From Basidiobolus ranarum (taxonomy: Eukaryota): a stretch of 39,918 nucleotides of DNA. The notes beneath the pieces were generated by a model, which was not told the origin of the DNA, did not search any database, and saw nothing but the letters and a program-made list of their open reading frames with translations. Position 1 is the stretch's first letter. Every line of letters begins with the position of its first letter. The DNA is taken from the NCBI GenBank assembly GCA_040143965.1, contig JASJQH010006916.1:1-39918 (forward strand), given 5' to 3'. Position numbers and translations under genes: made by a program. This document shows, piece after piece, positions 4,883-28,759 of the stretch.

Positions 4883-5151
4883 TTTATTGATCTCTATTTC
4901 ATACATAGAATTACACTATTTTATCATTTCTCCATTTTCATGTTATCCACCTTTGTACTAGAAATCAGTCTATCCTGTTACACCTTTATACCTTCAAAGC
5001 ATCCATCATTGTGTTATTTTCCACTACCTTTGCCGTTATTTTCCTCATTTGTTCGGATGCTCTTTTGTGGTTGTTAGTTTAGCTTTAGCATGTTGTTGAA
5101 TAATCATTAAATCGAAAGCCTTTCTAAGGGTCTTTATTACGAATACTTGTA

Positions 5152-6712
5152 TCAGTTCTCTGCATTATTAGGCCAGAATACATTGCAGGTATTTTGGTAT
5201 ACTATCTCGGCAACATCTTGAGCGTCCCGGGCATGTAGGCCAGCAATGACTTCCAAAACTTGTCTACTCATTAGAGATTAGTAAAAGCTAATGTTCATGG
5301 ACTAAAGAGTTTGAAAAGAGCTACCTTAAAGTACAAGGTTCATTTCGACTTTTGACCATCAATCCCAATTCAAATCGCTCCTTCTTTTTACTTTCGAATA
5401 ACAGCTCTGGTTTGTCTTTGAGATATTTGTAACTGGCATGAGTTGGACGAATATCACACCAAGGTGCATCTACGAGTTTGAGGTATTGGATTAGTTATCT
5501 CGGTGTTGGTATGGTCTTTGAATAAGAAAAATGGCTATTTTACCAGTCTCAATCATCATCCGCTCGATAGGAATTGACGCTACAGTGTCAAGGTTCTCTT
5601 GAGTCTTTAGAGAACATCCATTGATTCCAATATAAAGATCCAAATCCAATATTTCCTTGGCTTCCTCGGGGGTTCCGGTGAAAGAGTGAACTACCCCTTG
5701 AGTGAATCGGTGGCGATTTTTTCTTATCATCTGTATGATTAGGTGAAGGATAGAAAACAGTATGTAGTGCTAATGGTATCAATATCATTCCATGTAAAAA
5801 AGGATATCGACAAAGTCACCATCCGTATTTCGATTGTGAAGGAACATCGGAAGTTTGGTAGTTTCCGCTAGTTGGAATTGCTTCTCAAAATATCTGTTAC
5901 AGTAAGCATTATTTATCACCGGAAGAATACTAAGCATTTACGTCAACATACTTGATTTGTGTCTCTTTGTCGCAAAAATGAAGTCTATCATAGTCTACAT
6001 GCATTCATACACGAACCATCAATAGAATGCATCATATATACGTTAGGTATTGTTTTCTTACCTAAACCACATTCACCGATGGCCACTACTTTGGTATGTT
6101 CGCTACGAGCAATTTCCAATAATTCCTCATAATAAGCTTCAGGTGAAGCTTTAATTGAGGTATCTTCAAACTCAGAACAACGGGTAGGATGACAGCCAAC
6201 AGTGGAAAATAAATAATCTACATAGAGAAGAAAGATGAATTTCGATAAGATTGCTTCCTGTTTTTAAATTATGGGCTGTTTGAAATAACCTTTGCTTCTG
6301 GCTAATTCGAGAGCTTCTTTACTTTCGGATAGAGAACCACCAGTAATCATCATACGTTCTACACCTACATCAAGTGCTCTTTTCAAGACATATTCCAAAT
6401 CGTCTATTTGTAATATCCAGGTGAGTATTAGTATTTTCTTTTTTTTGGGTGGGGGTTAACCCAAACCTATAGGTAAGATCACCTTCGTGGGCTATTTTGC
6501 CTCGATAGTCCCCTCGAAACATAGGGTCAGTCAAGTTAAGTCCAATATCTTGGTTTGAAAAGTAGTGCAAGCATGTTAATCCAATATTCACTAATAGGCC
6601 ATAAAAGTACAAAATGTTTTGACTACTTCTTACCAATGAGTTTCATACTGCTGGTAACGGAAGCGAGTGATAAGCACCTTCGATTAATGGTGTTTACCAG
6701 TGTACTTAACAT
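5152..6712 (-). CDS. TATDN1: TatD-family DNase (TATDN1-like), 9 exons
   Basis: Spliced motifs [84 protein letters not shown] and VKSRNEPC; stop TGA at 5154-5152. Start is either ATG 6646 or the upstream in-frame ATG 6712. Confidence 0.93.
5733..5807 (-). other. U12-type (minor spliceosome) AT-AC intron in TatD
   Basis: 5' end ATATCCTTTTTT, branch-like TCCTTCAC (5750-5743) about 11 nt from the terminal AC. Removal restores the frame (DFV-E-MIRKNR); retention gives an in-frame TGA. Confidence 0.85.
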
Positions 6713-7312
6713 GAAAAGTGTATTATCATTGCTAATAACTATTTCCACTTTTATTGTAACACCCATGCTAAATCTACCGACAAAATTTACTTCTGAAATA
6801 GGATAATTTAATTCATATAGTTTGAGCCATTATATACTCTGTATATTTCCTGGCGTTAACGACCAAACTATTTAATAATTGTGTGACAAAAGCCGAGTTT
6901 TATTGACGAAAAGAATTCAATCCAGTCATTATGTTGATGCAGAATTCCCAAAACCATTGATATCAGTTTAAGTACTGTATCTTGGTAGGGCTATGGCAAC
7001 TATCTTCAAATGCGATAGGTTCTTCACAGCCTAAATGCGAAGATGTTCCTCAAAATACTAGCCAATTCAGCACTACTCAATGATCAATTTATTGTTATAG
7101 TTCGCTCACATTAAGTTAATGTAGATCCCTTCGGAGTATGAAATCTCTTTAATGAGATGCACAGGCTAGCATAAAACCAGTAGGGTATCACCAATATTGC
7201 TTGAACGGGTTAATTTGATCAAGTTTCGAATATTTCCCATGAGGCACATGCACCATTTGCTTGAGCATTAGCATAAAATGAGATCGTGTCAGCGTTTAAT
7301 CGGCAATAGTCA

Positions 7313-9919
7313 ATGATGGTACATGAAGTATTGAAGGCTATTTCCGTGAATTCATTCCTCGAAACGATCCAATCTGCTCTTACTGATGCACTCTACTTCC
7401 TAACGAGAAACATAACCGCTGTTGGATTTATTCTTATATGTGCGCATATCTTACACTGGACACTCGCTCCCAAAATCCACTATTTCGGCGGAATTCATGG
7501 GCGACGGTTCATTTACGGTGTCTTTGTAGGGATATGGTTTTCGAGAACAGTAATGGACTACGGTCCAATCTATGATTTAGGTATTGATCTGTTGCTGCTG
7601 AACTTGTACTTCTGTTGGGTGCAATTTGCACCTATACTAGAAACTAGGTTTCCAAGATATTCAAACTTGATCTTGCATTCGTCCTCAAAGCAGGCCTTTC
7701 TTGGCTTTAGTTTGCCAGTCATTTTCGCATTTATCAGCATATGGTCGTTGATACTGGCACTACCAGTCAATATTGCGTGTACCTACGCGGTGCTTTTGTA
7801 TAGACTTGAGAGAACCAACAAATCACCCAAACGGAGGCAAGAAACATCACAACTGTTCCAATCTGTCCCAGAGATAGAAGTACCTTTCCTAGCAATGACA
7901 CTTTATATTCCCGTTGACTTTGTCAGTTCGTGGCTTGGAATTGTTACTGCAACGATGATATGGGCAACCCTATTGGTCAAGTGTAATATAATTCAATTTA
8001 CTGCCAATTTTCGACTGACATTCGCACCAGACATTTTAATCTCGATTAGAAATTTTCACGATAGAGATTCAGTATTCTCTCCCCTTGTAAACTTGGCACT
8101 TGCGGCTATAGTGAGATTCGTGTTACTACCACTTATTTCCTACAGCACGTCTTCGAACCTAGTGGGTATCACTGTATCTGTTGGCCTCTACATATATAAT
8201 TTTGGGAGCTTTCGGGAAAACCGTGGGGAATATTATTCTTACTTGAATAAGTTCGAACAGGTTTTCGAGTGGTCATCAGACTGGATTCAGTATGTGGAAC
8301 AGGTGGAGAGTTTACTCATAACGGCACAACATTTGCGGTGGTCCCATACAATTGGGGTGTCGATGGCGGTGTCATTTTTTCTATCGGTCATTATCAATAG
8401 GAATCCACTCGGGGGATTACTGACAGTTACTGCTATTGGGGCTATTCCATTGGTAAAGTACCTATTGGATACCATAACAGCCGGTGAAGAAGAGAGAAAT
8501 GAATACCGATTTTCCATGACACAACTGATTTCCTTTCTATACCAAACTGTCAGTGAAATACTCGATCGACAAAGCTCCATAAGAGACCAGCTGGCTCCAG
8601 TGATGTTTGGCATATTCGTCACAGGAATTCTGGAGATAGTGGTTGTTGGAACATGGTTCTCTATTCCGTGTAATATTGGAAAGATTCTGGGACTGATGCT
8701 AACTCTCCCAAAATTAATACTTGTACTATCTAACGTTCTTGTACTGGTAGTGGCACTTAAGAGTCTATATTTTCAGCCACTGGAGACCAGACTTAGGATG
8801 GTTATGGAACTGATAGAGCGACCTGATCGTGATGCAGAAAATACCTTGTACTGCCAGTGTACTAGGCATTCTGATCTATTCTTTATTCAAAGTATGCAGT
8901 GTCTAAGCGATGTCCTCACAATGGATAAGTGCTCGTATATATCAGTAGATTTTGATGGAGAGGATGGTGTTGACGTAGGCGGACTCAGACGTGAATGGAT
9001 GACAATGATTTCCAAAGAGCTGGTGCAACGAGGGCTTCTGAAACGCGAAGGCACATCATCACTTCGATTTTCATTAGATCACAAAGCGGATGGCTACTTT
9101 TGTATTGGAGTGTTATGTGGATTTTCTCTTATATATAGAGATACACCACTTGGACTCGATATTGCTGAACCCATACTCCGCTCGCTATGGGAGACACGTC
9201 ATGAAAAATACCTTGTATCCTTTTCGGACCTCAAGAAAGTAGAGCCAGAGGTGCAACGTAATGCCTTATCACTTTTGAATTATACCCGCGAGGAACTAGC
9301 TGCACTCTATCTCCACTTTGAGATTCATAGCGACGATGGTCATACCTTCAAAGAATGTGATCCGAATAACCCCGATGAATCTAAACAGATCACCAAGGAG
9401 AACCTTCCAGATTACTTCCGATTCCTTGCGCGAACATATCTCCGTGACAAAATTAGCTTACACATTGAACAATTTAAACTGGGATTTTCTCTTATCGTAC
9501 CATATGATATATATAAGCACATTTCATCTCACGACCTGTTCTGTATTCTTCGCGGGTCGGTAAAAATCGACACTGAAAGCTGGAAGAAACACACGAAATA
9601 CTCTTTTGAAAGTGACTTACAGCATGAACTGACGCAAAAGATGACAATCTGGCTATGGGAAATCATTAACGAGTATCCACAACAAGATAAAATTCGATTT
9701 CTTCGTTCAGTGACATCGTTAGAGACCCTACCGGCCAATGGGTTCAAATTACTTCAACCACCATTTAACATCTTGTTTACCTCTCAGCCCGCTCACTATA
9801 TTCCCAAAACTCACACTTGCTTTAATAGACTGGATCTTCCTCTATACAGATCTAAAGAGCAAATGAAAGAAAAATTGCAGATGCTATTGGATCATTCCGA
9901 TTCATTTTCTATTGCGTGA
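7313..9919 (+). CDS. HECT-domain E3 ubiquitin ligase with a multi-pass transmembrane N-terminal region (intronless, 868 aa)
   Basis: The C-terminal ~350 aa carry HECT hallmarks: FDGEDGVDVGGLRREW, FKLGF, LRSVTSL, catalytic PKTHTCFNRLDLPLY and terminal DSFSIA (-4 Phe). The N-terminal ~490 aa contain about 12-13 long hydrophobic segments. Confidence 0.85.
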   Translation: MMVHEVLKAISVNSFLETIQSALTDALYFLTRNITAVGFILICAHILHWTLAPKIHYFGGIHGRRFIYGVFVGIWFSRTVMDYGPIYDLGIDLLLLNLYFCWVQFAPILETRFPRYSNLILHSSSKQAFLGFSLPVIFAFISIWSLILALPVNIACTYAVLLYRLERTNKSPKRRQETSQLFQSVPEIEVPFLAMTLYIPVDFVSSWLGIVTATMIWATLLVKCNIIQFTANFRLTFAPDILISIRNFHDRDSVFSPLVNLALAAIVRFVLLPLISYSTSSNLVGITVSVGLYIYNFGSFRENRGEYYSYLNKFEQVFEWSSDWIQYVEQVESLLITAQHLRWSHTIGVSMAVSFFLSVIINRNPLGGLLTVTAIGAIPLVKYLLDTITAGEEERNEYRFSMTQLISFLYQTVSEILDRQSSIRDQLAPVMFGIFVTGILEIVVVGTWFSIPCNIGKILGLMLTLPKLILVLSNVLVLVVALKSLYFQPLETRLRMVMELIERPDRDAENTLYCQCTRHSDLFFIQSMQCLSDVLTMDKCSYISVDFDGEDGVDVGGLRREWMTMISKELVQRGLLKREGTSSLRFSLDHKADGYFCIGVLCGFSLIYRDTPLGLDIAEPILRSLWETRHEKYLVSFSDLKKVEPEVQRNALSLLNYTREELAALYLHFEIHSDDGHTFKECDPNNPDESKQITKENLPDYFRFLARTYLRDKISLHIEQFKLGFSLIVPYDIYKHISSHDLFCILRGSVKIDTESWKKHTKYSFESDLQHELTQKMTIWLWEIINEYPQQDKIRFLRSVTSLETLPANGFKLLQPPFNILFTSQPAHYIPKTHTCFNRLDLPLYRSKEQMKEKLQMLLDHSDSFSIA

Positions 9920-11027
9920 AGTAAATAATGTATTCATTAATTAATAAATCAGTATTGCATGCAACCAACATGTCATTTCTAATATTAAGGTATATACATA
10001 TATGTGATAACCAGGCTGTTTTGTAGAATAAGATAGATTACCTAATAAACCATGTAGCTTCATGTATCTGTCTACTACTAACCGGCCCATCTGGACCGTA
10101 AGATATTACATGTAGACAAATTTAGCAATAGTAAGTTGAAACCTTTTGTGGTTTCATTGCTTCAATAGAGTGGATGAGAATACTTAATCTAGATTCAATA
10201 TTCAAATAAGCGAGGAATGATCACCATAATGATATTTGAAGTTCTACAAGTTTTTAGGGCTGGATTTCGAGCCTTATAATTCAGTTTACATGCACAGTGC
10301 AAAAACTGTCAGATAAACCTCCAGTTTGTAAAACCATTATATCATCATGAGAATTTTGCTGTTTGAAGTATGTGTAGTACAAGCAGTAGTTATAACCTAT
10401 TAATATTTATTATTTCTATGTTACAATCTTTACGATATCAAGCAAATTAGGAACTATGGTGTACTCAAGAAGCCCACTATACATTTATGTAATCAATAGA
10501 ATATATATACTGAATACTACTATAGTGATAGAAAAAACTACCAGCACTGTAGCAGAATTGACAGTATTTGGAATCACTAGAAAAGGTTGATTTTTCTTTA
10601 TGTAAAATGAAGTGAAGAATTTGTGTCTATATTGAATATGGGCACTGATATATTAATCGCCCAGATCATTAGGGAGACGATAAAGAAACAAGCAATTCAT
10701 TTTACACATTTCCAAGAAATGTGCAGAATTACTGTGAAGTAAAAATCGTTAAAAGTTAATGTATATAATGGAATTCTTACATAGGTCATTTCGCTCTTGA
10801 TTGCTCTTTCGAATCTTGACCTGACACAGGCTTTGGATATTTCATAATTATTATTTGGCTATCATCACCATGACAACAAAATCATATCACTTCGACGCCT
10901 CGATCAATCAGTCGGTCAGTTTCAATGCTTAATTGAGATCAATGATCAATCGTTTAAACTGTTTCAACGATCATCAACTTCGGAATAGCGGTAATCAAGC
11001 ACACAGATTGCACTGATATCTTACACC

Positions 11028-11034
11028 TATATAA
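11028..11034 (+). promoter_or_regulatory. TATA box upstream of small secreted ORF
   Basis: TATATAA about 35-40 nt before ATG 11068, which has a CAACATG context. Confidence 0.5.
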
Positions 11035-11067
11035 GACGTATTGCATACTCCTTACAAACCCATCAAC

Positions 11068-11232
11068 ATGTCCTTCAAATCCATCCTCACCATCTTCTTG
11101 ATAACTCTCATCAGCATGAGCCACGGGCAAACTGAGGAGCCTGAATTCGTCACTGAAGTATCCACTCAATATGTCACTCTAAGCCAATTACGCTCTGCTG
11201 CTCAACCAACCGCTGGCCTCCAAGCCATTTAA
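11068..11232 (+). CDS. Putative small secreted peptide (54 aa)
   Basis: MSFKSILTIFLITLISMSHG looks like a signal peptide (basic n-region, hydrophobic core, S-H-G|Q cleavage), followed by QTEEPEFVTEVSTQYVTLSQLRSAAQPTAGLQAI. TATA and good start context upstream; AATAAA downstream near 11296. Confidence 0.55.
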   Translation: MSFKSILTIFLITLISMSHGQTEEPEFVTEVSTQYVTLSQLRSAAQPTAGLQAI

Positions 11233-11535
11233 GATTTGTCTTCATATTCATCTAAGTAGTTATTGGTTAGGAATTATCGCAAGGGAATTACTGAAAATAA
11301 ACAGTTACTCCACCTTTTTGCCAAAACTTCAACCAAGTATATTGATTATGTATTATCAAAATGTTTATTTCATGCAGGATAAATTTAAAAATATTGAGCG
11401 ATTCTTGTATATATATTGGTAGATGAAGAGGGAAAATGAGGATTGTGAGCTAAAAGTAGAAAAAATACCAAGATGCAGAAGAATGTATGTATATATAAAT
11501 TGGAATTAATCTAATACAACCATGTAAATGTGTCA

Positions 11536-14499
11536 TTAATAGGCATCCTTCTCGTTGTCTACGAGAACAACGTCTTCTTTCATGGCCTTTCTCTTGATGA
11601 ATTTGTATATTTCCGAAGAGACAAGGAAAATAACAATCGAAACACCAACAATTCCCCACTCCCAGGTAAGATATTGATGCTTGAAGATATCAGTGTTAAC
11701 ATAAGGAATGTACAACACAGGAATCAATAGACCGCAACCGAGGAAAATGGACCAGAAAAGAGGTCTGTTGGAATAGTAGTTTCTAATGCCAGGAGGCAAC
11801 CATTGGGGTTCACGAAGACTACGGCAGTTATAAGCGTGTAAGAGGATCAACAAGGTAAGGCAAGAAAAGGCAGCGCCACGAGCACGGAATACTAAATCAC
11901 ACTCGGTGGAATAAGTAGAGTTGCAGTCACGTCCGAGATTTCCATCACCAAAACCAAACACCACAAGAACGAAGTTGATTAGAGCAAGTCCACCCATTAA
12001 AGTACCATAAACCAAGATATCCATAAAGATCTCTAGAGTGAAAATACCACTGATTGGTGGACGAGGAGGCATACGCATTGTCAAAGGATTTATGGGCTCT
12101 AAGCCTAAAGCCATAGCGGGAGGAGAACTGGTTACCATGTTCAAGAAAAGAATTTGAACGGGTGACATGGGATAAACTGTGAGACCACTGGAGTCAGCGA
12201 AACAAAGACCGATTACTAAGGCGATGATTTCGGAGACGTTACCAGACATCAAGTGAAGGACAAACTTCTGGATGTTGGCAAAGATACGACGACCTTCTTC
12301 GACAGCTCTAACGATAGTAGCAAAGTTGTCATCAGTTAAGACAATATCGGAAGCTTGTTTAGCGACATCAGAGCCGGCCATACCCATGGCAATACCAACG
12401 TTGGCAATCTTAAGACTAGGTGAGTCATTTACACCATCCCCTGTCATAGCAGCAATTCTCTTTCTTCTATGGAGAGCCTTGATCATCTTTACTTTGGTAT
12501 CAGGACTACAACGAGCAATAACATAAGGGAGTTCTTCTAAGGCGTCAACCTCACCATCAGTCAAAGCATCAAATTCAATTGCAGTCATGACCAACTTGGG
12601 TCCTTCTTTACCAGGGCTGTAATTAGGTGGAATGATAGAAACTTCTCTAGCGATAGCAGCGGCAGTGGCAGGGTGATCACCAGTAAGCATGTGAACTCTG
12701 ATACCAGCACGGTGGCATTCTTCGACACTGTCCTTGGATTCAGCACGAGGAGGATCATAGATACCAACCAAACCGACAAAGACCATATCACGTTCAACTT
12801 GTTCACGAGTCCAATAATCTGGATGGGTTTCGGAGAGTTGGGGTTCAATATAACGATATGCAAGGGATAATACACGAAGTCCGTTGGAAGCCATTAGTTC
12901 AACTTGATGACTGATCATTTGATGCAATTGGTCGGGCTTCTCGATGGTCTCCTCTCTGTCACCAATTCTTATACGTGAGCAAGTCTCGATGACCCGCTCA
13001 GTAGCACCCTTCATATAAGCGATGTGTTTGCCGGATTTTTCTTCGGTGTAAACTACACTCATTCTCTTGACGGTGGAATCAAATGGATATTCCGCATGAA
13101 GGGTGAACTCTACGTGGTTGTCTTCAGATTCTTTGGTCAGCTCAGGTCTTCCGCGGCCAACTTTAGTGGCAAATACTTGGAGAGCAGTTTCAGTTGGGTC
13201 ACCAACACCCATCCATTCACCGGTAGTTTTATCATGCTTAAGAATTGCCATATTACACAATGAGGAAACCTCAACCATTCTTCTAAGGGGGGCACTCATA
13301 CTTTCGAAACTGACAGTTTCTTTATAAGAATCCGAGCTTCCAGATAAGGCCAATTCATTAGCAGAAACATCACCAAGACGAATTACTTGTCCTTCGGGTA
13401 CAAAGCCAGCGCCAGATACATGATAGAAACCATCCCCTGGAACGTAGGCTTTGGTCAAAACCATCTTGGATTGAGTAAGAGTACCGGTCTTATCGGAGCA
13501 AATGTTGGTAACGGAGCCCAGAGCCTCAAGAGCATTAAGTTGTCTGATAATAGCCTTATTCTTGGCCATGGATCTGACTCCAGCAGCCATAGTGAGAGTT
13601 ACAACAGCAATCAAACCTTCGGGAATTACAGCAATACCTAGAGAAATAGCATAGATAGCTACCTCAGAACTGATCTTGAATTTGTTTACAGCAAACACCA
13701 CAATAGCCAGAATGATAGCGACAAAAAATAGGATATAGGCCATCTTGTCCATACTTTTTTGGAGTTTGGTTTTACTATCACCACTACTCTCGATAAGACT
13801 CTTGGCGATTTTACCAATCTCACTTTGCATTCCGGTGGCAATAACAATTCCACGACCACGACCCTTAGTTACGGTGGTGCTAGAATATACCAGATTGATA
13901 CGATCACCAATAGGTTCATCCGGATTCTTCAAGGTTTCCAGGGTCTTGGGGACTGGAAGAGATTCACCAGTAAGCAAAGCCTCATCAACCTCAAGGTTGA
14001 ATTGTTCGCTCAGACGAGCATCGGCACCAATGACATCACCATTCTCAAACACCAGAATATCGCCGGGAACAAGTTCGTTGGTAGAAATGTGAGCCAAGTT
14101 GCCATCACGCATAACGCGTGAAGTGGGAGAAGCCATTTTACGAAGTGAGTCCATGGTTTTCTCGGCACGGTACTCTTGGAAGAAACCGATGGTAGCGTTT
14201 GTTACAATAACAACACCGATCACAGCACCCTCTACCCAATCTTTGGCAGAAAAGGCAATGGCCATGGCGATTACGAGAATGATCGTAAGTGCGTTGGCAA
14301 TTTGTCTGAAAAGCACTTTCCAAGGACTAACACCTCCGTTTCCGGACATTTGGTTAAGACCATATTTCTGAAGGCGGTCAGTTACTTGCTGGGAGCTGAG
14401 GCCATCCTCTAGATTGGAATCTAATCTCTGGGCAACATCTTGGATATCGTAGATATGATACGGCGTAGGTTCTTCGGGAACAGGAGTAGGTTTGGTCAT
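11536..14499 (-). CDS. ENA1: Na+/K+-exporting P-type ATPase, type IID (ENA family), intronless
   Basis: TGES, IPEGL, CSDKTGTLTQ, KGATE, MLTGDH and MTGDGVNDSPSLK motifs, plus ENA-type NMVTSSPPAMALG and FFQEYRAEKTMDSL. Confidence 0.92.
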   Translation of the reverse strand: MTKPTPVPEEPTPYHIYDIQDVAQRLDSNLEDGLSSQQVTDRLQKYGLNQMSGNGGVSPWKVLFRQIANALTIILVIAMAIAFSAKDWVEGAVIGVVIVTNATIGFFQEYRAEKTMDSLRKMASPTSRVMRDGNLAHISTNELVPGDILVFENGDVIGADARLSEQFNLEVDEALLTGESLPVPKTLETLKNPDEPIGDRINLVYSSTTVTKGRGRGIVIATGMQSEIGKIAKSLIESSGDSKTKLQKSMDKMAYILFFVAIILAIVVFAVNKFKISSEVAIYAISLGIAVIPEGLIAVVTLTMAAGVRSMAKNKAIIRQLNALEALGSVTNICSDKTGTLTQSKMVLTKAYVPGDGFYHVSGAGFVPEGQVIRLGDVSANELALSGSSDSYKETVSFESMSAPLRRMVEVSSLCNMAILKHDKTTGEWMGVGDPTETALQVFATKVGRGRPELTKESEDNHVEFTLHAEYPFDSTVKRMSVVYTEEKSGKHIAYMKGATERVIETCSRIRIGDREETIEKPDQLHQMISHQVELMASNGLRVLSLAYRYIEPQLSETHPDYWTREQVERDMVFVGLVGIYDPPRAESKDSVEECHRAGIRVHMLTGDHPATAAAIAREVSIIPPNYSPGKEGPKLVMTAIEFDALTDGEVDALEELPYVIARCSPDTKVKMIKALHRRKRIAAMTGDGVNDSPSLKIANVGIAMGMAGSDVAKQASDIVLTDDNFATIVRAVEEGRRIFANIQKFVLHLMSGNVSEIIALVIGLCFADSSGLTVYPMSPVQILFLNMVTSSPPAMALGLEPINPLTMRMPPRPPISGIFTLEIFMDILVYGTLMGGLALINFVLVVFGFGDGNLGRDCNSTYSTECDLVFRARGAAFSCLTLLILLHAYNCRSLREPQWLPPGIRNYYSNRPLFWSIFLGCGLLIPVLYIPYVNTDIFKHQYLTWEWGIVGVSIVIFLVSSEIYKFIKRKAMKEDVVLVDNEKDAY

Positions 14500-17537: not shown

Positions 17538-19854
<2,317 letters not shown>

Positions 19855-22104: not shown

Positions 22105-23701
22105 ATGACTTCGAGCAACATACTTAGTGACCCAGTTTCTTATGCTTGGTCACAAACGGACGACCAAGTTTCCGTCTCTTTCTTAGTACCGAAAACCTTC
22201 CGTTCTAGAGACGCCATCATAGAACTTCATACCGATGAGCTTCATGCTGGTTTACGCGGAACTGAACCAATCTTAAAGGTAAATTGATTTTTAGCCTATT
22301 TACTACATTCCCCCTTTGCCTTCCAGTTTGAGTGTAATACTTTTGTTCAATATTTCCCATTTCAAGTCTCTTTCTCGAGTAAATCCTTTCTTTCTATTCG
22401 AATTTCTATAGAAACTTAAGGCAACAATGGCTTATCCTACTTGTTAGTAACTTATTGCTATACTTTAGGGGAAATTATATGCACAAATACGTACCAGTGA
22501 CTCGGTTTGGCAGATAGAATCAGCTTCAGAATCTACATTGGTTGATAGTGCTTCGGCTTTGACATATCAACTTTTAACTGTACACCTGGAGAAATTGATT
22601 CGTGGATTAGATTGGCCAGTGGTAGTGATTGAACCAGCTAAAGGTAGTAACGAAGTGGACATAGCATCACGATTCTATTTAGGTAAAATGTATGAAAGTA
22701 TCGACCCGGTTAAAGCTTTCGAGTATTACATATCAGCGGCTAAGAATGATCACATCGCATCTCAACTAAAATTAGCCGCCATGTACGAGATCGGTAAAGA
22801 AAAGAGCTCCATCGTTGTTGTATATAGAAATATCGAGAAATCCTTCTATTGGCATTTACAAGCGGCTAAAAATGGGAATGCTGAAGCTAATTATATCGTT
22901 GGTACGTCCTATTCGAATGGTCATGGTGTTGAAAAATCTTACCTTGAGGCTATCAAATATTTTAAAAAGGCTATGGATTTAGCGTATCCTTCGCTCGATG
23001 GAGCCAATCATGAATCGGATTCTAGTCAAGCTAGAGGTTATTATGCTTTCTTTGTGAATTCTGCGTTCAGAACTGGTTTGATGTACTTGGAGGGCGGGAA
23101 TGGGATCGCTCCAGATCCATCCTTGGCTTTGGAATTTTGGAAGCAATCGGCGGCTACTGGACATGCGCAATCTATGTATAATACTGGTATTCTTTATTTA
23201 AATGGAGTTGGGACTGAGAAGAATTTGGATGAGGCGAGCAGGTACATTCAAAATGCTATTGAGTTGGATCCCAAGTTAAAATTACCCGAGGCCTTGGTAA
23301 ATTACAAGAAACCGGCGGATCCAAAGGTCGAAGAGGTCAGAAGAAGCCCTATGAATCGTACGTCAAATTCTCGTAAATCCAAGAAATATGCACCCGCAGA
23401 TACAACACAAGAGCCACGTTCCGTAGATTCTAATGAATCCCAAGAAACTGAGTCTGAGGAAGAACTCAAAGCAACGAAAGGTAGTAAACCAATTAGAAGA
23501 AAACGTAAAGCACGAAGATCAAGATCCGAATCCACATCCAAGTCCTCAGACGACGGATTAGCTTGGTTTTTACTTGGTTCTTTAGCAGCCTTTGCTTTAG
23601 GGTTGGTTGCATTCTCAGTTATCCGAAGACCAGCTGGGCACCATCCACACACAGTTCCACGCTCTGTGTCCCGATCAGTTGCCGGCGTTCAAGTCATCTA
23701 A
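22105..23701 (+). CDS. CS (p23/NudC-like) domain + Sel1-like repeats + C-terminal transmembrane protein
   Basis: Exon 1 YAWSQTDDQVSVSF... joins across intron 22279-22468 to GKLYAQIRTSDSVWQIE...LTVHLEK...WPVV (CS domain). About 5 Sel1 repeats follow (e.g. AQSMYNTGILYLNGVGTEKNLDEA), then a charged linker and TM GLAWFLLGSLAAFALGLVAFSVI. Confidence 0.82.
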
Positions 23702-24149: not shown

Positions 24150-25370
24150 ATGCTTTTCACTAGTATCCCACACACGATCAGTACTTTAGGGTTATTTTAC
24201 GAGAATCACCCCCACGACTGTCCCGAAAGATTGGTCGAACTTTGGTTTGATTCAATTGAGAAAATGAAATTATTAGAAATATATAGACTGCTTTTCACTA
24301 ATCCTCAACTAATCAAAGTACGCTCAAATGGTCACCTTGTGTATCCAGTTCATTCAATGAAAGAAGCAAATCATTGTCTTGGTCCAGCAACATCAAATAT
24401 GAACTCACTTCAAGTTGCCATGCTCTACTTCTACTCAGCCAAAGAGTATGGTAATCACGAAGAAATTAATCTTCGTAAAGCAGTTGTCGATATTGTCTTT
24501 GATGTAAGTTACTTTTCTATGCCCCCCCACCATGGTCATTGTTCACCAACAAAATCTATTTTGGTGTAGGCCTCGAATGAGAAAGACCTGGCTACAGATG
24601 TTTGGGGTGATCGCAATACTACCTTACACCTAGCTGCCTTTATGAATGATGAAGAGTTGGTCCATCTCTTGCTACAAAAGGGGTGCACCCCTGATACAAC
24701 CAACCAACATGGTTACTCATGTCTTGGTGTGACTTCCAGTCCAATTATACTTGATCTATTCAGACGGGTATCTCCTTTATTAGATGCAGCACCCAAGCAT
24801 TATCCATCAACACTCCATGTAGAAAAAAATCAGTTACCATCCAAAATGACCTTGAGAAGCAAGGTTGAACAAGACCATGTTAATGAATTCCTAGAAATCC
24901 CCAGCCTAAACCAACTTTTGAGTCAACGCGATATAAGTCCTCCCTGGCCAATGGTGAATGATACGACACCATCATCACGTAAAGACTCCACCCTCCATCA
25001 AGATATCACGAACACTCTACTTACCACGGATTCTTTGGAGCGTAAAGTGTATTCACAGATGAAGAAATCATCACAACTTTCAACGAACCCCGCCAGTAAG
25101 GATAAAGGCACCCCAGATTTCTACTCAAGCATGAAAAAGAAAGGAAGCACCATGATGACCATTCACTACAAAAAATTCCCCCATTTCGAAAGCATCAAAA
25201 GTATGAATATCTCCCAATTCTGGAAGAAAATTAAACCACATAAATCGACCAGCGGTTGTATTAGTGGCTCAGATATGGATATAGAGAATTTCAATATTGT
25301 CCACCAGTCAAGAATGAAATGGAGTTGGAACTGGTTCAATACCTTGAACAAATCAAAGGCCCCCTTGTGA
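24150..25370 (+). CDS. Ankyrin-repeat protein (2 exons)
   Basis: Intron 24504-24569 (GTAAGT...TAG) joins the two ORFs in frame. Ankyrin motif GDRNTTLHLAAFMNDEELVHLLLQKGCTPDTTNQHGYS; a second degenerate repeat is MNSLQVA. Start codon uncertain. Confidence 0.65.
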
Positions 25371-26223: not shown

Positions 26224-26901
26224 ATGCTTTCTGCTACATTAATGGCTTTAGACAGTTTGATCGCGGAATATCCTTCTAACCCGACCCCCTATTCAAACTG
26301 GGTAATCCCCGGAAAGGTGTTATGTGGTGCTTACCCGATGGTTAGAGATAAAAACGAGAGTAGGGATCATTTACGTTCATTGCTCGCAGCTGGTGTTACA
26401 ACCTTTGTATGCTTACAAGAGCAAAGTGAATTGAATATGCTTCCAGATTATAAAAGTGAGGTCATGGACTTACACAAGGAGCTCGGAGGCGAGAAAACTT
26501 GTCGCTCGATTCAATTCGTTCATTTTCCTATCAGAGATGGATCCATATTACACGATGTTTTATTGAACTCCTTGATAAGTGTGCTAGAACAAAGAGTCTT
26601 CAAAAATAATGAGCTTTTATATGTGCATTGTTGGGGTGGCCATGGCAGAACAGGAACCCTAGTCGCTTGTATGTTGGCCAAATACTATGGACTTCATGCT
26701 GACCTTGCTCTTGAGTTAACACAACGCCTACACGATACTAGACAGGACAAGGTTATTTCCAAGTCTCCAGAGACCAGAGTACAAGTCAGCCAAGTACGTA
26801 GAATAGTGGGGAAATACTCGATTGCAAGAACTGCCCCACCTGCCACTGCCGTTTCAGCGGTGACCCCTCCAAATTCAAGCATTGGTGCTGTTCCTGGATA
26901 A
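26224..26901 (+). CDS. Protein tyrosine/dual-specificity phosphatase (CX5R), intronless
   Basis: Active site YVHCWGGHGRTG, acid loop HFPIRDG, SNWVIPGKVLCGAYP and Q-loop SPETRVQ. TATAAAA at about 26127. Confidence 0.85.
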   Translation: MLSATLMALDSLIAEYPSNPTPYSNWVIPGKVLCGAYPMVRDKNESRDHLRSLLAAGVTTFVCLQEQSELNMLPDYKSEVMDLHKELGGEKTCRSIQFVHFPIRDGSILHDVLLNSLISVLEQRVFKNNELLYVHCWGGHGRTGTLVACMLAKYYGLHADLALELTQRLHDTRQDKVISKSPETRVQVSQVRRIVGKYSIARTAPPATAVSAVTPPNSSIGAVPG

Positions 26902-27252: not shown

Positions 27253-28759
27253 TCAGGCAAAGATGACGATCGATTGCAATATGATTAAACGGTGCTTGCA
27301 CTTTTTAAGCACACTGGTGTCTCCTGAATCCCCTCCTTCCTCATTTCTATATCCCATTCTGAAAGCGGTCTGATGTGACCACCTCTATTTACATGGTGGA
27401 ACCAAGTCTTTGGATGCTCCGTACGTAATTTGATCGACGGATTATCCAGCTCCTCGAGATGAACCCAGCAGGCCCCATTGGTTTCGTAGTCGGGTAATGA
27501 TTTCGGTATTTGATGGTCGTATCTTGGCTACAAATAACTTGTCAGTCAATGAAAGAAGATCCTTGTTATTTCAGGAACTTACCACTCCCAAAAAGACCCA
27601 CAGCCGGGTCTCATATTTTGAATAGTCTTCACCATTCTTGTCACCCAATTCATGCTCATAATGCAGAAATCCTCGAAGCTCAATATCTATCCCCGACTCT
27701 TCTTTGGTTTCTCGTACGGCTGCTTCCATTGGCGTTTCTTCCGGATCGATCTCTCCGCCTGGAAACCAGTATCCTGCGTCACCACGCTCCTCAATCTAAA
27801 TATCAAGTTGTTGTTGAATATCTTCCTACTTTGATGGCCATTTGAATTAGACTTACCATTAGAAATTTCCCATCGCTTTCACGCCGGATCACTACCACTG
27901 CAAATCTACAATCCCCCGATGATGGCCGAGGCCTTCTCTTTCTAACTCCAAGCTCCTCGGCTACTAGACTTTGTGTTGGCCATATCTCATTGGACGAGTG
28001 TTCTTCTTGTAGATGGATAGGAAACCATCTGGGATTTTGTTTGGAAGGTTTGGAGCACTTGGTGGGGATCTCAAGGCATCGGGGACATTCATTGATAGGT
28101 ACATTTGATGCCGAAGTGTGATAGAGCGGAAGATGAGTTCTCAACGAAGGTTGTCTTGTTGAAGTAAAGGATGCGAAATTAGCCGGACATAATGGGCACT
28201 CGTAAGTTTGACCTAATAATGGTGATACGTCGGTGTGAAATTCTGGATTGATGATATGATCGAATGCGGTCGATAACGCTTGTTGAACGCTATCTTCACT
28301 ACGTGTCACCATATTCGTACCTGCTTTGATATACATGGATCTCAACAGTATCTCTTCACTTGCTAATTCATTCCATAACATTATGAATGTTCGATTGAAC
28401 TGTTTATGTGGTATCCCCGGCCTTGAAGGCTCGGGTAGCGAGCGGAGTCCTTGAATTAGAGACAACCCCACCTCCTTGTGAAACTTGTAGTTATTGATGC
28501 CTGGAAAGAGTATGAATGCTAATGCAGGTGGGGCATTAGCGAAAGCGTAACGTTCAGGGTTAAAGGTTCTCGCATTTAAGTATACGGTTTCTAATTGAAG
28601 GTAATCTAATATAGGCGTTAAAAAGGCTTCAACTCGGTTGTTCTTGGATAGTCGTTGGTCTGTGGGAGTAAATATCAAGGCTTTATCATGAAAACTTCGA
28701 AGTCTCTTAAGAGTCGTTTGTAGGTAGAATGAAGGACGCGAATTCAGTATTGATAGCAT
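27253..28759 (-). CDS. Nudix hydrolase with N-terminal extension and two C2H2-like zinc fingers (3 exons)
   Basis: Introns 27796-27856 and 27528-27582 (GT-AG). Exon 2 has the canonical Nudix box WFPGGEIDPEETPMEAAVRETKEESG. Exon 1 has CPLC...HLPLYH and CPRC...HLQEEH. Exon 3 reads PKSLPDYETNGACWV. The 3' end is less certain. Confidence 0.8.

Follow-up and report, generated by a model that had tools for sequence, protein, structure and literature searches.

A Basidiobolus ranarum open reading frame that joins a polytopic-like hydrophobic region to a complete HECT domain and may encode a membrane-resident ubiquitin ligase

We examined a 39,918-nucleotide stretch of the Basidiobolus ranarum genome (GenBank assembly GCA_040143965.1, contig JASJQH010006916.1, positions 1 to 39,918 of the forward strand), referred to here as the window, in which an earlier reading of the DNA (the original prediction) had placed a polytopic membrane protein fused to a HECT-type ubiquitin ligase (E3). 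The locus consists of one uninterrupted open reading frame (ORF) on the plus strand at positions 7313 to 9919, with an ATG start, 868 codons in a single reading frame and a TAA/TAG-type stop at 9917 to 9919; the original prediction was correct on this point. Two regions were distinguished in the translation: a polytopic hydrophobic region at residues 34 to 486 (7412 to 8770, plus strand), which belongs to no recognizable family, and a complete HECT domain, with N and C lobes, at residues ~497 to 868 (8801 to 9916, plus strand). On balance we favor the reading that the ORF represents a genuine gene in a Basidiobolus species, seen here in one genome, and that its product is probably an integral membrane protein with ~9 to 12 predicted transmembrane helices, the last of which would lead into the HECT domain to give a membrane-resident E3. 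The architecture is real and unusual at the DNA level; it is rare but has precedent and is not categorically new.

The first possible start codon of the ORF is the ATG at 7313, because an in-frame TAG lies just upstream at 7307 to 7309. With the base composition of the window, 510 successive codons would be free of stops by chance with a probability of ~2e-15, and the full 868 with a probability of ~1e-25. The GC content was 0.38 to 0.45 throughout the ORF, compared to 0.31 to 0.37 in both flanks, and was at a coding level from nucleotide ~7300 onwards. Coding potential was scored as a codon-usage log-odds value trained on six confidently identified genes within the window, and the frame of the ORF itself (frame 0) was top scoring in 10 of 10 windows of 150 codons, above the three reverse frames. 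A minus-strand ORF at 8287 to 8613 was rejected as a real gene, as the reverse frames scored below frame 0. These results also bear on the possibility of a wrong gene model, in which the mRNA differs from the ORF and yields either a spliced form, with exons removed or added, or a product limited to the HECT part that begins at a start codon within the ORF. Such a model could draw on the richness of this genome in short introns, exemplified by a TatD-like neighbor at ~5150 to 6640 on the minus strand, and on the sequence before the ATG, which ends in ...caatag and is a possible splice acceptor. Furthermore, neither the ORF product nor an overlapping model produced a self-match in three protein searches, whereas an ATPase encoded elsewhere in the window did. 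We nevertheless regard a wrong gene model as quite unlikely, because the 1.5 kb preceding the HECT domain contains no stop in that frame (the 510-codon run above) and has its best coding score and coding-level GC content there, because the HECT part aligned to relatives without intron-sized insertions in a 13-sequence alignment, and because the ATPase, DEAD helicase and permease genes of the window are also single ORFs.

The last strong helix of the hydrophobic region was located at residues 468 to 486, with the HECT domain beginning ~10 residues later and the first HECT helix occupying residues 490 to 501 of the structural model. As a HECT helix is present within ~10 residues of the last membrane helix, there is practically no linker between the membrane part and the catalytic domain. 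The start of the HECT domain had previously been put at about nucleotide 8845 (residue ~511), which was roughly right, although a start near nucleotide 8801 is more likely. No step in GC content or skew was found near the junction (nucleotides 8700 to 9000), and no repeats were found between positions 6000 and 11600. The effective number of codons (ENC) was 54.8 and 57.7 for the two halves of the ORF and 56.5 for the gene, indicating a weak codon bias; the similarity of both halves in bias and GC content fits one gene with one history. An assembly chimera, in which two unrelated sequences became joined in frame, would have had to place its junction inside continuous coding sequence, at the passage from a membrane helix to the first HECT helix, without a compositional step or a repeat and with the same weak codon bias on either side. 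An accidental in-frame, stop-free join of this type is improbable, no supporting point was found, and we consider a chimera to be extremely improbable.

Identification of the HECT domain was based on profile, sequence and structure comparisons. HECT was the sole Pfam family detected at an E value of ≤1 in the whole protein, and the match to PF00632 (E value of 7e-52; 177.4 bits against a cutoff of 23.9) covered residues 582 to 867, equivalent to profile positions 23 to 305 of 306. A search of PDB sequences detected 76 distinct chains at an E value of ≤0.001, and all 60 of the 60 listed were HECT ligases. The highest scores, of 106 to 114 bits, were obtained with NEDD4, ITCH and Rsp5 (E values of ~1e-29 to 1e-31; 6.7e-32 for NEDD4), followed by HACE1 (~90 bits), HUWE1/Tom1 (72 to 87 bits), E6AP (70 to 77 bits), UBE3C (59.5 bits) and TRIP12 (52 bits). 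Alignment to pub2 (chain 9b55_C), in which residues 497 to 865 matched chain positions 10 to 377, moved the start of the domain back to residue 497. A full-length AlphaFold2 model made with a 13-row alignment had predicted local distance difference test (pLDDT) values of 80 to 92 in the C lobe and ~55 to 75 in the N lobe, and use of the alignment improved the HECT part only. A subsequent Foldseek search yielded 116 matches at an E value of ≤0.001; the top matches were to whole HECT domains, with Smurf1/2 and NEDD4 ranked first (E values of ~1e-18 over 390 to 400 aligned columns). The predicted catalytic cysteine, Cys836 (codon at 9818 to 9820, plus strand), lies in the C lobe at the distance typical of HECT ligases (~32 to 35 residues from the C terminus) and is found within an exact HTCFNRLDLP sequence aligned to the active-site cysteine of NEDD4, and all 24 invariant columns of the 13-sequence alignment were retained, that of Cys836 included. 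The phenylalanine at position -4 of the HECT tail has a functional role, and this residue is present as Phe865 (codon at 9905 to 9907, plus strand) in a near-invariant column of the alignment. An intact HECT domain with a catalytic cysteine and a -4 phenylalanine had been predicted, and both residues were found in conserved columns. Overall, these comparisons indicated that the HECT domain is complete, has kept its catalytic residues and looks active. Two LPxY matches to PY motifs were detected in the protein, both inside the HECT domain.

The hydrophobic region was analyzed with the Kyte-Doolittle scale, using a 19-residue window and nonoverlapping segments. Nine strong segments (residues 34 to 52, 91 to 109, 134 to 152, 204 to 222, 258 to 276, 343 to 361, 367 to 385, 427 to 445 and 468 to 486) were detected at a threshold of ≥1.6 and 10 at ≥1.2, with all of them located within residues 34 to 486. 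Another three stretches, of weaker hydrophobicity, were read by eye (residues 62 to 80, 152 to 168 and 283 to 300) and extended the total range to between 9 and 13. The polytopic pattern proposed in the original prediction was therefore upheld, while its count of 12 to 13 segments represents only the upper end of this range; the two peptide strings quoted there were both present in the translation, at residues 127 to 162 and 425 to 487. With the same script and a threshold of 1.6, two polytopic controls encoded in the window, an ENA-type P-ATPase and an amino acid permease, had 9 and 10 segments, respectively. No segments were detected in the DEAD helicase, a PTP-like protein, DeoC or two unassigned ORFs, and a Sel1 protein had one. 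In 1,000 shuffles of residues 1 to 490, the mean number of segments was 5.4 ± 1.35, and the observed value of 9 was reached in 11 of 1,000. The variance of windowed hydropathy was 0.916, compared to 0.478 ± 0.107 for shuffled sequences, and was reached in 1 of 1,000. Charged residues were ~6-fold rarer within segments (0.029 per residue) than outside (0.185 per residue). These results indicated that the N-terminal part, whose segment count resembles those of the ATPase and permease and exceeds those of the shuffles, matches true polytopic proteins in both hydrophobicity and segmentation. A Hessa-type insertion scale was dropped as too strict, having detected only 2 (strict) or 3 (looser) of ~10 helices in the ATPase and 3 to 4 of ~12 in the permease; the Kyte-Doolittle scale with controls was used instead. 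AlphaFold2 modeling of residues 1 to 510 without an alignment produced an all-helical structure with a pLDDT of 42.3. No internal repeat or duplication of the membrane part and no paralogues within the window were found, and no PPxY or other PY motif was found in the N-terminal part.

Relatives of the membrane part were sought in several collections. The original prediction had not recognized this region as any transporter family, and no match to a transporter or other family was obtained. The N-terminal 490 to 510 amino acids (aa) had no Pfam match, and residues 1 to 490 matched nothing in PDB sequences (phmmer, E value of ≤10) or in NCBIfam (E value of ≤10). With residues 1 to 510, a phmmer search of 1.84 billion representative proteins, unrestricted in length, produced no matches at an E value of ≤0.001, and the best score in the ESM Atlas, 0.76, was at noise level. 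The whole protein detected only HECT clusters in the ESM Atlas. A word search with the whole protein found no match at an E value of ≤0.001 among 8,000 scored candidates but says little by itself, as its candidates were probably dominated by hydrophobic words. No encoded relatives were detected in metagenome, viral or prokaryote genome contigs, in scans that detect close relatives only. A bacterial or viral origin was rejected, since the neighboring genes are fungal and the viral and prokaryote scans were empty.

The orientation of the HECT domain was considered in terms of the positive-inside rule. In a model with nine spans, the HECT domain would be located together with the loops richer in basic residues, which contain 18 lysine and arginine residues compared to 12 on the other side (hand count from the loop table); a model with 10 spans would reverse this placement. 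The most basic loop, residues 164 to 177 (RLERTNKSPKRRQE; 7802 to 7843, plus strand), forms part of loop 153 to 203, which has 6 lysine and arginine residues, and would by this rule be the foremost candidate for a loop facing the cytosol.

A search with the HECT region, limited by shared words (5-mers) and to proteins of 477 to 1,519 aa, detected 22 proteins among 4,883 candidates, with identities of 25% to 32% and E values down to 1e-46. Most of the 22 were of oomycete origin by source name. One strong hydrophobic segment was present in the first 30 residues of 15 of the 22, and none had more than two segments. A tree of 18 HECT sequences was constructed with Rsp5-like proteins, one 973-aa yeast HECT and oomycete-named matches, in the absence of TOM1, UFD4, HUL4 and HUL4A references. 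The window protein joined no HECT group in this small tree. As the protein stands alone in this tree, its resemblance to oomycete proteins represents only the general level of similarity between HECT domains. One of the matches, a 1,294-aa protein of Phytophthora fragariaefolia, has HECT-like sequence in two places, matched by BLAST at 240 to 528 and 884 to 1224, which could represent a tandem duplication or two neighboring genes merged in one model.

Several observations weigh against a functional membrane-resident ligase. The HECT domain formed an isolated branch, 3.6 changes per site long, without affiliation to a subfamily, the usual LLQFxTGTSRVP stretch is replaced by FLRSVTSLETLP, and a six-residue loop is missing in the 13-sequence alignment. 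None of the 22 HECT-region matches was from Basidiobolus, a result that applies to proteins of 477 to 1,519 aa and does not exclude a HECT-only relative of <477 aa. The membrane part had no relatives in a collection that includes annotated proteins of both B. meristosporus and B. ranarum, which could mean that the gene arose very recently, that it is present in relatives without annotation, or that it has not been under long-term constraint. No confident AlphaFold2 fold was obtained for residues 1 to 490 (pLDDT of 42 alone and <50 in the full-length run), and the fold of the membrane part cannot be read at a value of 42. The orientation of the HECT domain hinges on whether residues 447 to 465 span the membrane. 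With nine spans the domain would be cytosolic, while a tenth span at this position would flip it to the side where there is no ubiquitin-activating (E1) or ubiquitin-conjugating (E2) enzyme. The correlation of relative synonymous codon usage (RSCU) with the six neighboring genes was 0.27 and 0.25 for the two halves of the ORF, compared to leave-one-out values of 0.46 to 0.82. Finally, transcription of the gene is presumed, and the case consists of one sequence in one genome, without conservation.

Many of these observations could be explained by a fast-evolving, lineage-specific offshoot that no longer is, or never was, a working ligase, with a HECT module that was duplicated or captured and drifts under weak constraint, and an N-terminal extension of no specific function. 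The long branch, the identity of at most 28% to 32% to any HECT, the diverged TGTSRVP-type stretch and the loop deletion are all consistent with drift, as are the near absence of codon bias (the ENC of 56.5 with a low RSCU correlation) and an N-terminal part that has no relative in any proteome, two Basidiobolus species included. We consider such an offshoot unlikely. A stop-free frame of 868 codons cannot last long without selection, the HTCFNRLDLP sequence, the -4 phenylalanine and the 24 invariant HECT columns are intact, and the charge-poor segments and polar loops are organized well beyond what composition would produce. Furthermore, low RSCU correlations were also detected for two other unassigned ORFs of the window (0.33 and 0.41), and hence the weak codon bias is not specific to the HECT gene. 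The codon usage is in keeping with a gene that is young or has weak expression, and neither proves nor excludes a foreign origin.

A foreign origin was considered in the form of transfer from an unsampled non-fungal eukaryote, such as a protist or oomycete-like organism sharing an animal-gut or soil habitat. The gene would then be functional while standing outside the six HECT subfamilies of fungi. This concerns only where the gene came from and is compatible with a membrane-resident ligase. The nearest matches were mostly oomycete named rather than fungal, but the tree showed no affiliation with oomycete groups and 25% to 32% identity is the general HECT level for all of the matches, in a word search biased by chance sharing of 5-mers. 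The best ESM Atlas cluster for the protein (score of 0.93; 182 of 256 shared features) was a 777-aa HECT family whose only two members of known phylum are Fornicata. The lack of a homologue among annotated Basidiobolus proteins in the HECT search and the atypical codon usage would also fit transfer, although the GC content and weak bias resemble those of other ORFs in the window. Six conservative HECT subfamilies of fungi (RSP5, TOM1, UFD4, HUL4, HUL4A and HUL5) were described by Marin in 2018, and Ustilago is the sole true fungus credited with HECTs beyond these in Table 1 of that survey, in which Basidiobolus was not sampled (PMC5913265). Basidiobolus has been reported to be rich in horizontally acquired genes (PMC7466969). 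Taken together, we regard transfer as very unlikely.

Returning to a membrane-resident HECT ligase as the favored reading, we compared the window protein with known ligases. The original prediction had held that the characterized multipass membrane E3s are of the RING type. This was too strong, as PfUT (PF3D7_0704600) of Plasmodium falciparum is described as a 3,893-aa HECT ligase of the endoplasmic reticulum/Golgi with four putative transmembrane domains (PMC4022464, PMC6893019), and 15 of the 22 nearest HECTs are single-anchor proteins by prediction. From these descriptions, by which alone it was compared, PfUT is like the window protein in being a HECT-type E3 that is itself integral to the membrane but differs in having long armadillo (ARM)-repeat regions and a UFD4-like affinity (PMC4022464, PMC6893019). 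The window protein has 868 aa, ~9 to 12 predicted helices and no ARM family in Pfam at an E value of ≤1. Its HECT domain was closest to NEDD4/Rsp5-type structures (114 bits), whereas TRIP12, a UFD4-like ligase, was the weakest PDB group (52 bits). It thus belongs to the HECT family but not to the PfUT/UFD4 type.

The single-anchor HECTs (~620 to 680 aa; mostly oomycete by source name, for example, Lagenidium, Phytophthora, Peronospora and Globisporangium) were the nearest HECT matches and are membrane tethered by prediction. They differ in having one anchor, a Cys-rich CxxC...CxxC stretch, which we presume to be a RanBP2-type zinc finger from our own reading, and an extended soluble linker that leads to the HECT domain. 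The window protein has at least nine segments compared to one or two, no Cys-rich finger aligned to it, and it was separate from these proteins in the tree, so that it does not belong to their group.

The Rsp5/NEDD4 ligases are soluble proteins with C2 and WW domains that bind the PY motifs of multipass adaptors (Bsd2, Ear1 and NDFIP1/2). Together with their adaptors they have the closest type of catalytic domain and perhaps the closest expected job, that of ubiquitinating proteins at the membrane. The window protein differs in having neither a C2 nor a WW domain in Pfam, no N-terminal PPxY motif and a membrane part that is covalently fused. An identity of ~23% to 30% excludes orthology to Rsp5, and the protein falls outside the Rsp5/NEDD4 subfamily.

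Hrd1, Doa10/MARCH6 and Asi1/3 combine a multihelix membrane domain with a cytosolic ubiquitin-ligase module, a design suited to quality control of membrane proteins. To our knowledge, the membrane-embedded ubiquitin ligases studied in fungi are of this RING type. The window protein appears analogous in overall design, with a membrane bundle joined to a ligase module. The mechanisms would differ, as a RING scaffolds the E2 while the window protein is predicted to form a HECT thioester on Cys836. The membrane part had no sequence similarity to anything in Pfam or PDB. By analogy, the closest working models for the protein would be an Rsp5 ligase and its adaptor combined in a single chain, or a Hrd1/Doa10-like enzyme with HECT chemistry. 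The phrase "transmembrane HECT" and similar phrases for a membrane-bound HECT were not found in the literature searched, and the word "transmembrane" is absent from the main text of two HECT surveys, those of Marin in 2018 and Grau-Bove in 2013. The absence of such phrases suggests that a membrane-HECT architecture has been little discussed and is no proof that it is undescribed.

These comparisons suggest how a membrane-resident HECT ligase of this type might act. The helical bundle would fix the protein in an internal membrane or the plasma membrane, and the N lobe of the HECT domain would bind a charged E2 at the cytosolic face. Ubiquitin could then move to Cys836 and from there to lysines of proteins near the membrane surface, with the targets being either neighboring membrane proteins recognized by the bundle or the ligase itself. 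One polypeptide would thus act as both a membrane adaptor and a NEDD4/Rsp5-like catalytic module. A more far-reaching proposal is that the protein is the equivalent, with a HECT domain, of the polytopic RING ligases, in which a bundle of 9 to 12 helices not seen before recognizes intramembrane clients and the HECT domain fused to the last helix ubiquitinates them at the membrane surface, and that it constitutes a seventh, lineage-restricted fungal HECT type of recent origin, possibly captured from a non-fungal eukaryote. We offer this only tentatively and regard it as rather doubtful. Should the protein prove to be expressed and active, the HECT ligases of fungi, which are described as a small and conservative set of six soluble subfamilies, would include a membrane-integral member. 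This would be a compact 868-aa system in which a thioester mechanism that needs large lobe movements is pinned to the bilayer, and it could show whether a membrane bundle alone selects substrates. The lack of relatives makes the gene a case study of a 490-residue polytopic domain appearing in one lineage.

The flanking genes are ordinary host genes, which counts in favor of a genuine Basidiobolus gene encoding a membrane-resident ligase. Upstream, a TatD-like DNase gene with at least five to six short exons is present at 5150 to 6640 on the minus strand, and two of its exon translations matched the Pfam family TatD_DNase (E values of 1e-12 and 2e-8). Downstream, an intron-free gene at 11536 to 14499 on the minus strand encodes the ENA-type Na+/K+ P-ATPase of 987 aa, which had 89% identity to a protein of B. 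meristosporus CBS 931.73, 70% to a full-length B. ranarum protein (78% to a partial one) and 60% to a Neoconidiobolus protein, which places the window in a Basidiobolus species. Two B. meristosporus relatives of the ATPase, with 89% and 71% identity, suggest the presence of paralogues or homeologues in the genus. The TatD-like gene showed the many short introns of this genome, while the HECT, ATPase, helicase and permease genes are single ORFs. The convergent 3' ends of the HECT and ATPase genes are separated by a 1.6-kb AT-rich spacer (9920 to 11535; GC content of ~0.31 to 0.35), which is long for a 3'-3' spacer and contains no ORF with a Pfam match.

Elsewhere in the window, ORFs of 226, 242 and 318 aa at 17538 to 18218 (plus strand), 24642 to 25370 (plus strand) and 27803 to 28759 (minus strand), respectively, matched no Pfam family at an E value of ≤0.001 and had only chance-level matches at ≤0.1; in two of these, codon bias was similarly weak to that in the HECT gene. 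A 337-aa Sel1-repeat protein (E value of 2.5e-29) encoded at 22688 to 23701 (plus strand) has one strong hydrophobic segment and may be membrane anchored or secreted. A 225-aa protein encoded at 26224 to 26901 (plus strand) matched PTP-SAK (E value of 3e-21) and Tc-R-P (E value of 4e-10), both more strongly than DSPc; according to Pfam, these families are Swiss Army Knife and polymorphic-toxin-system phosphatases (dual specificity).

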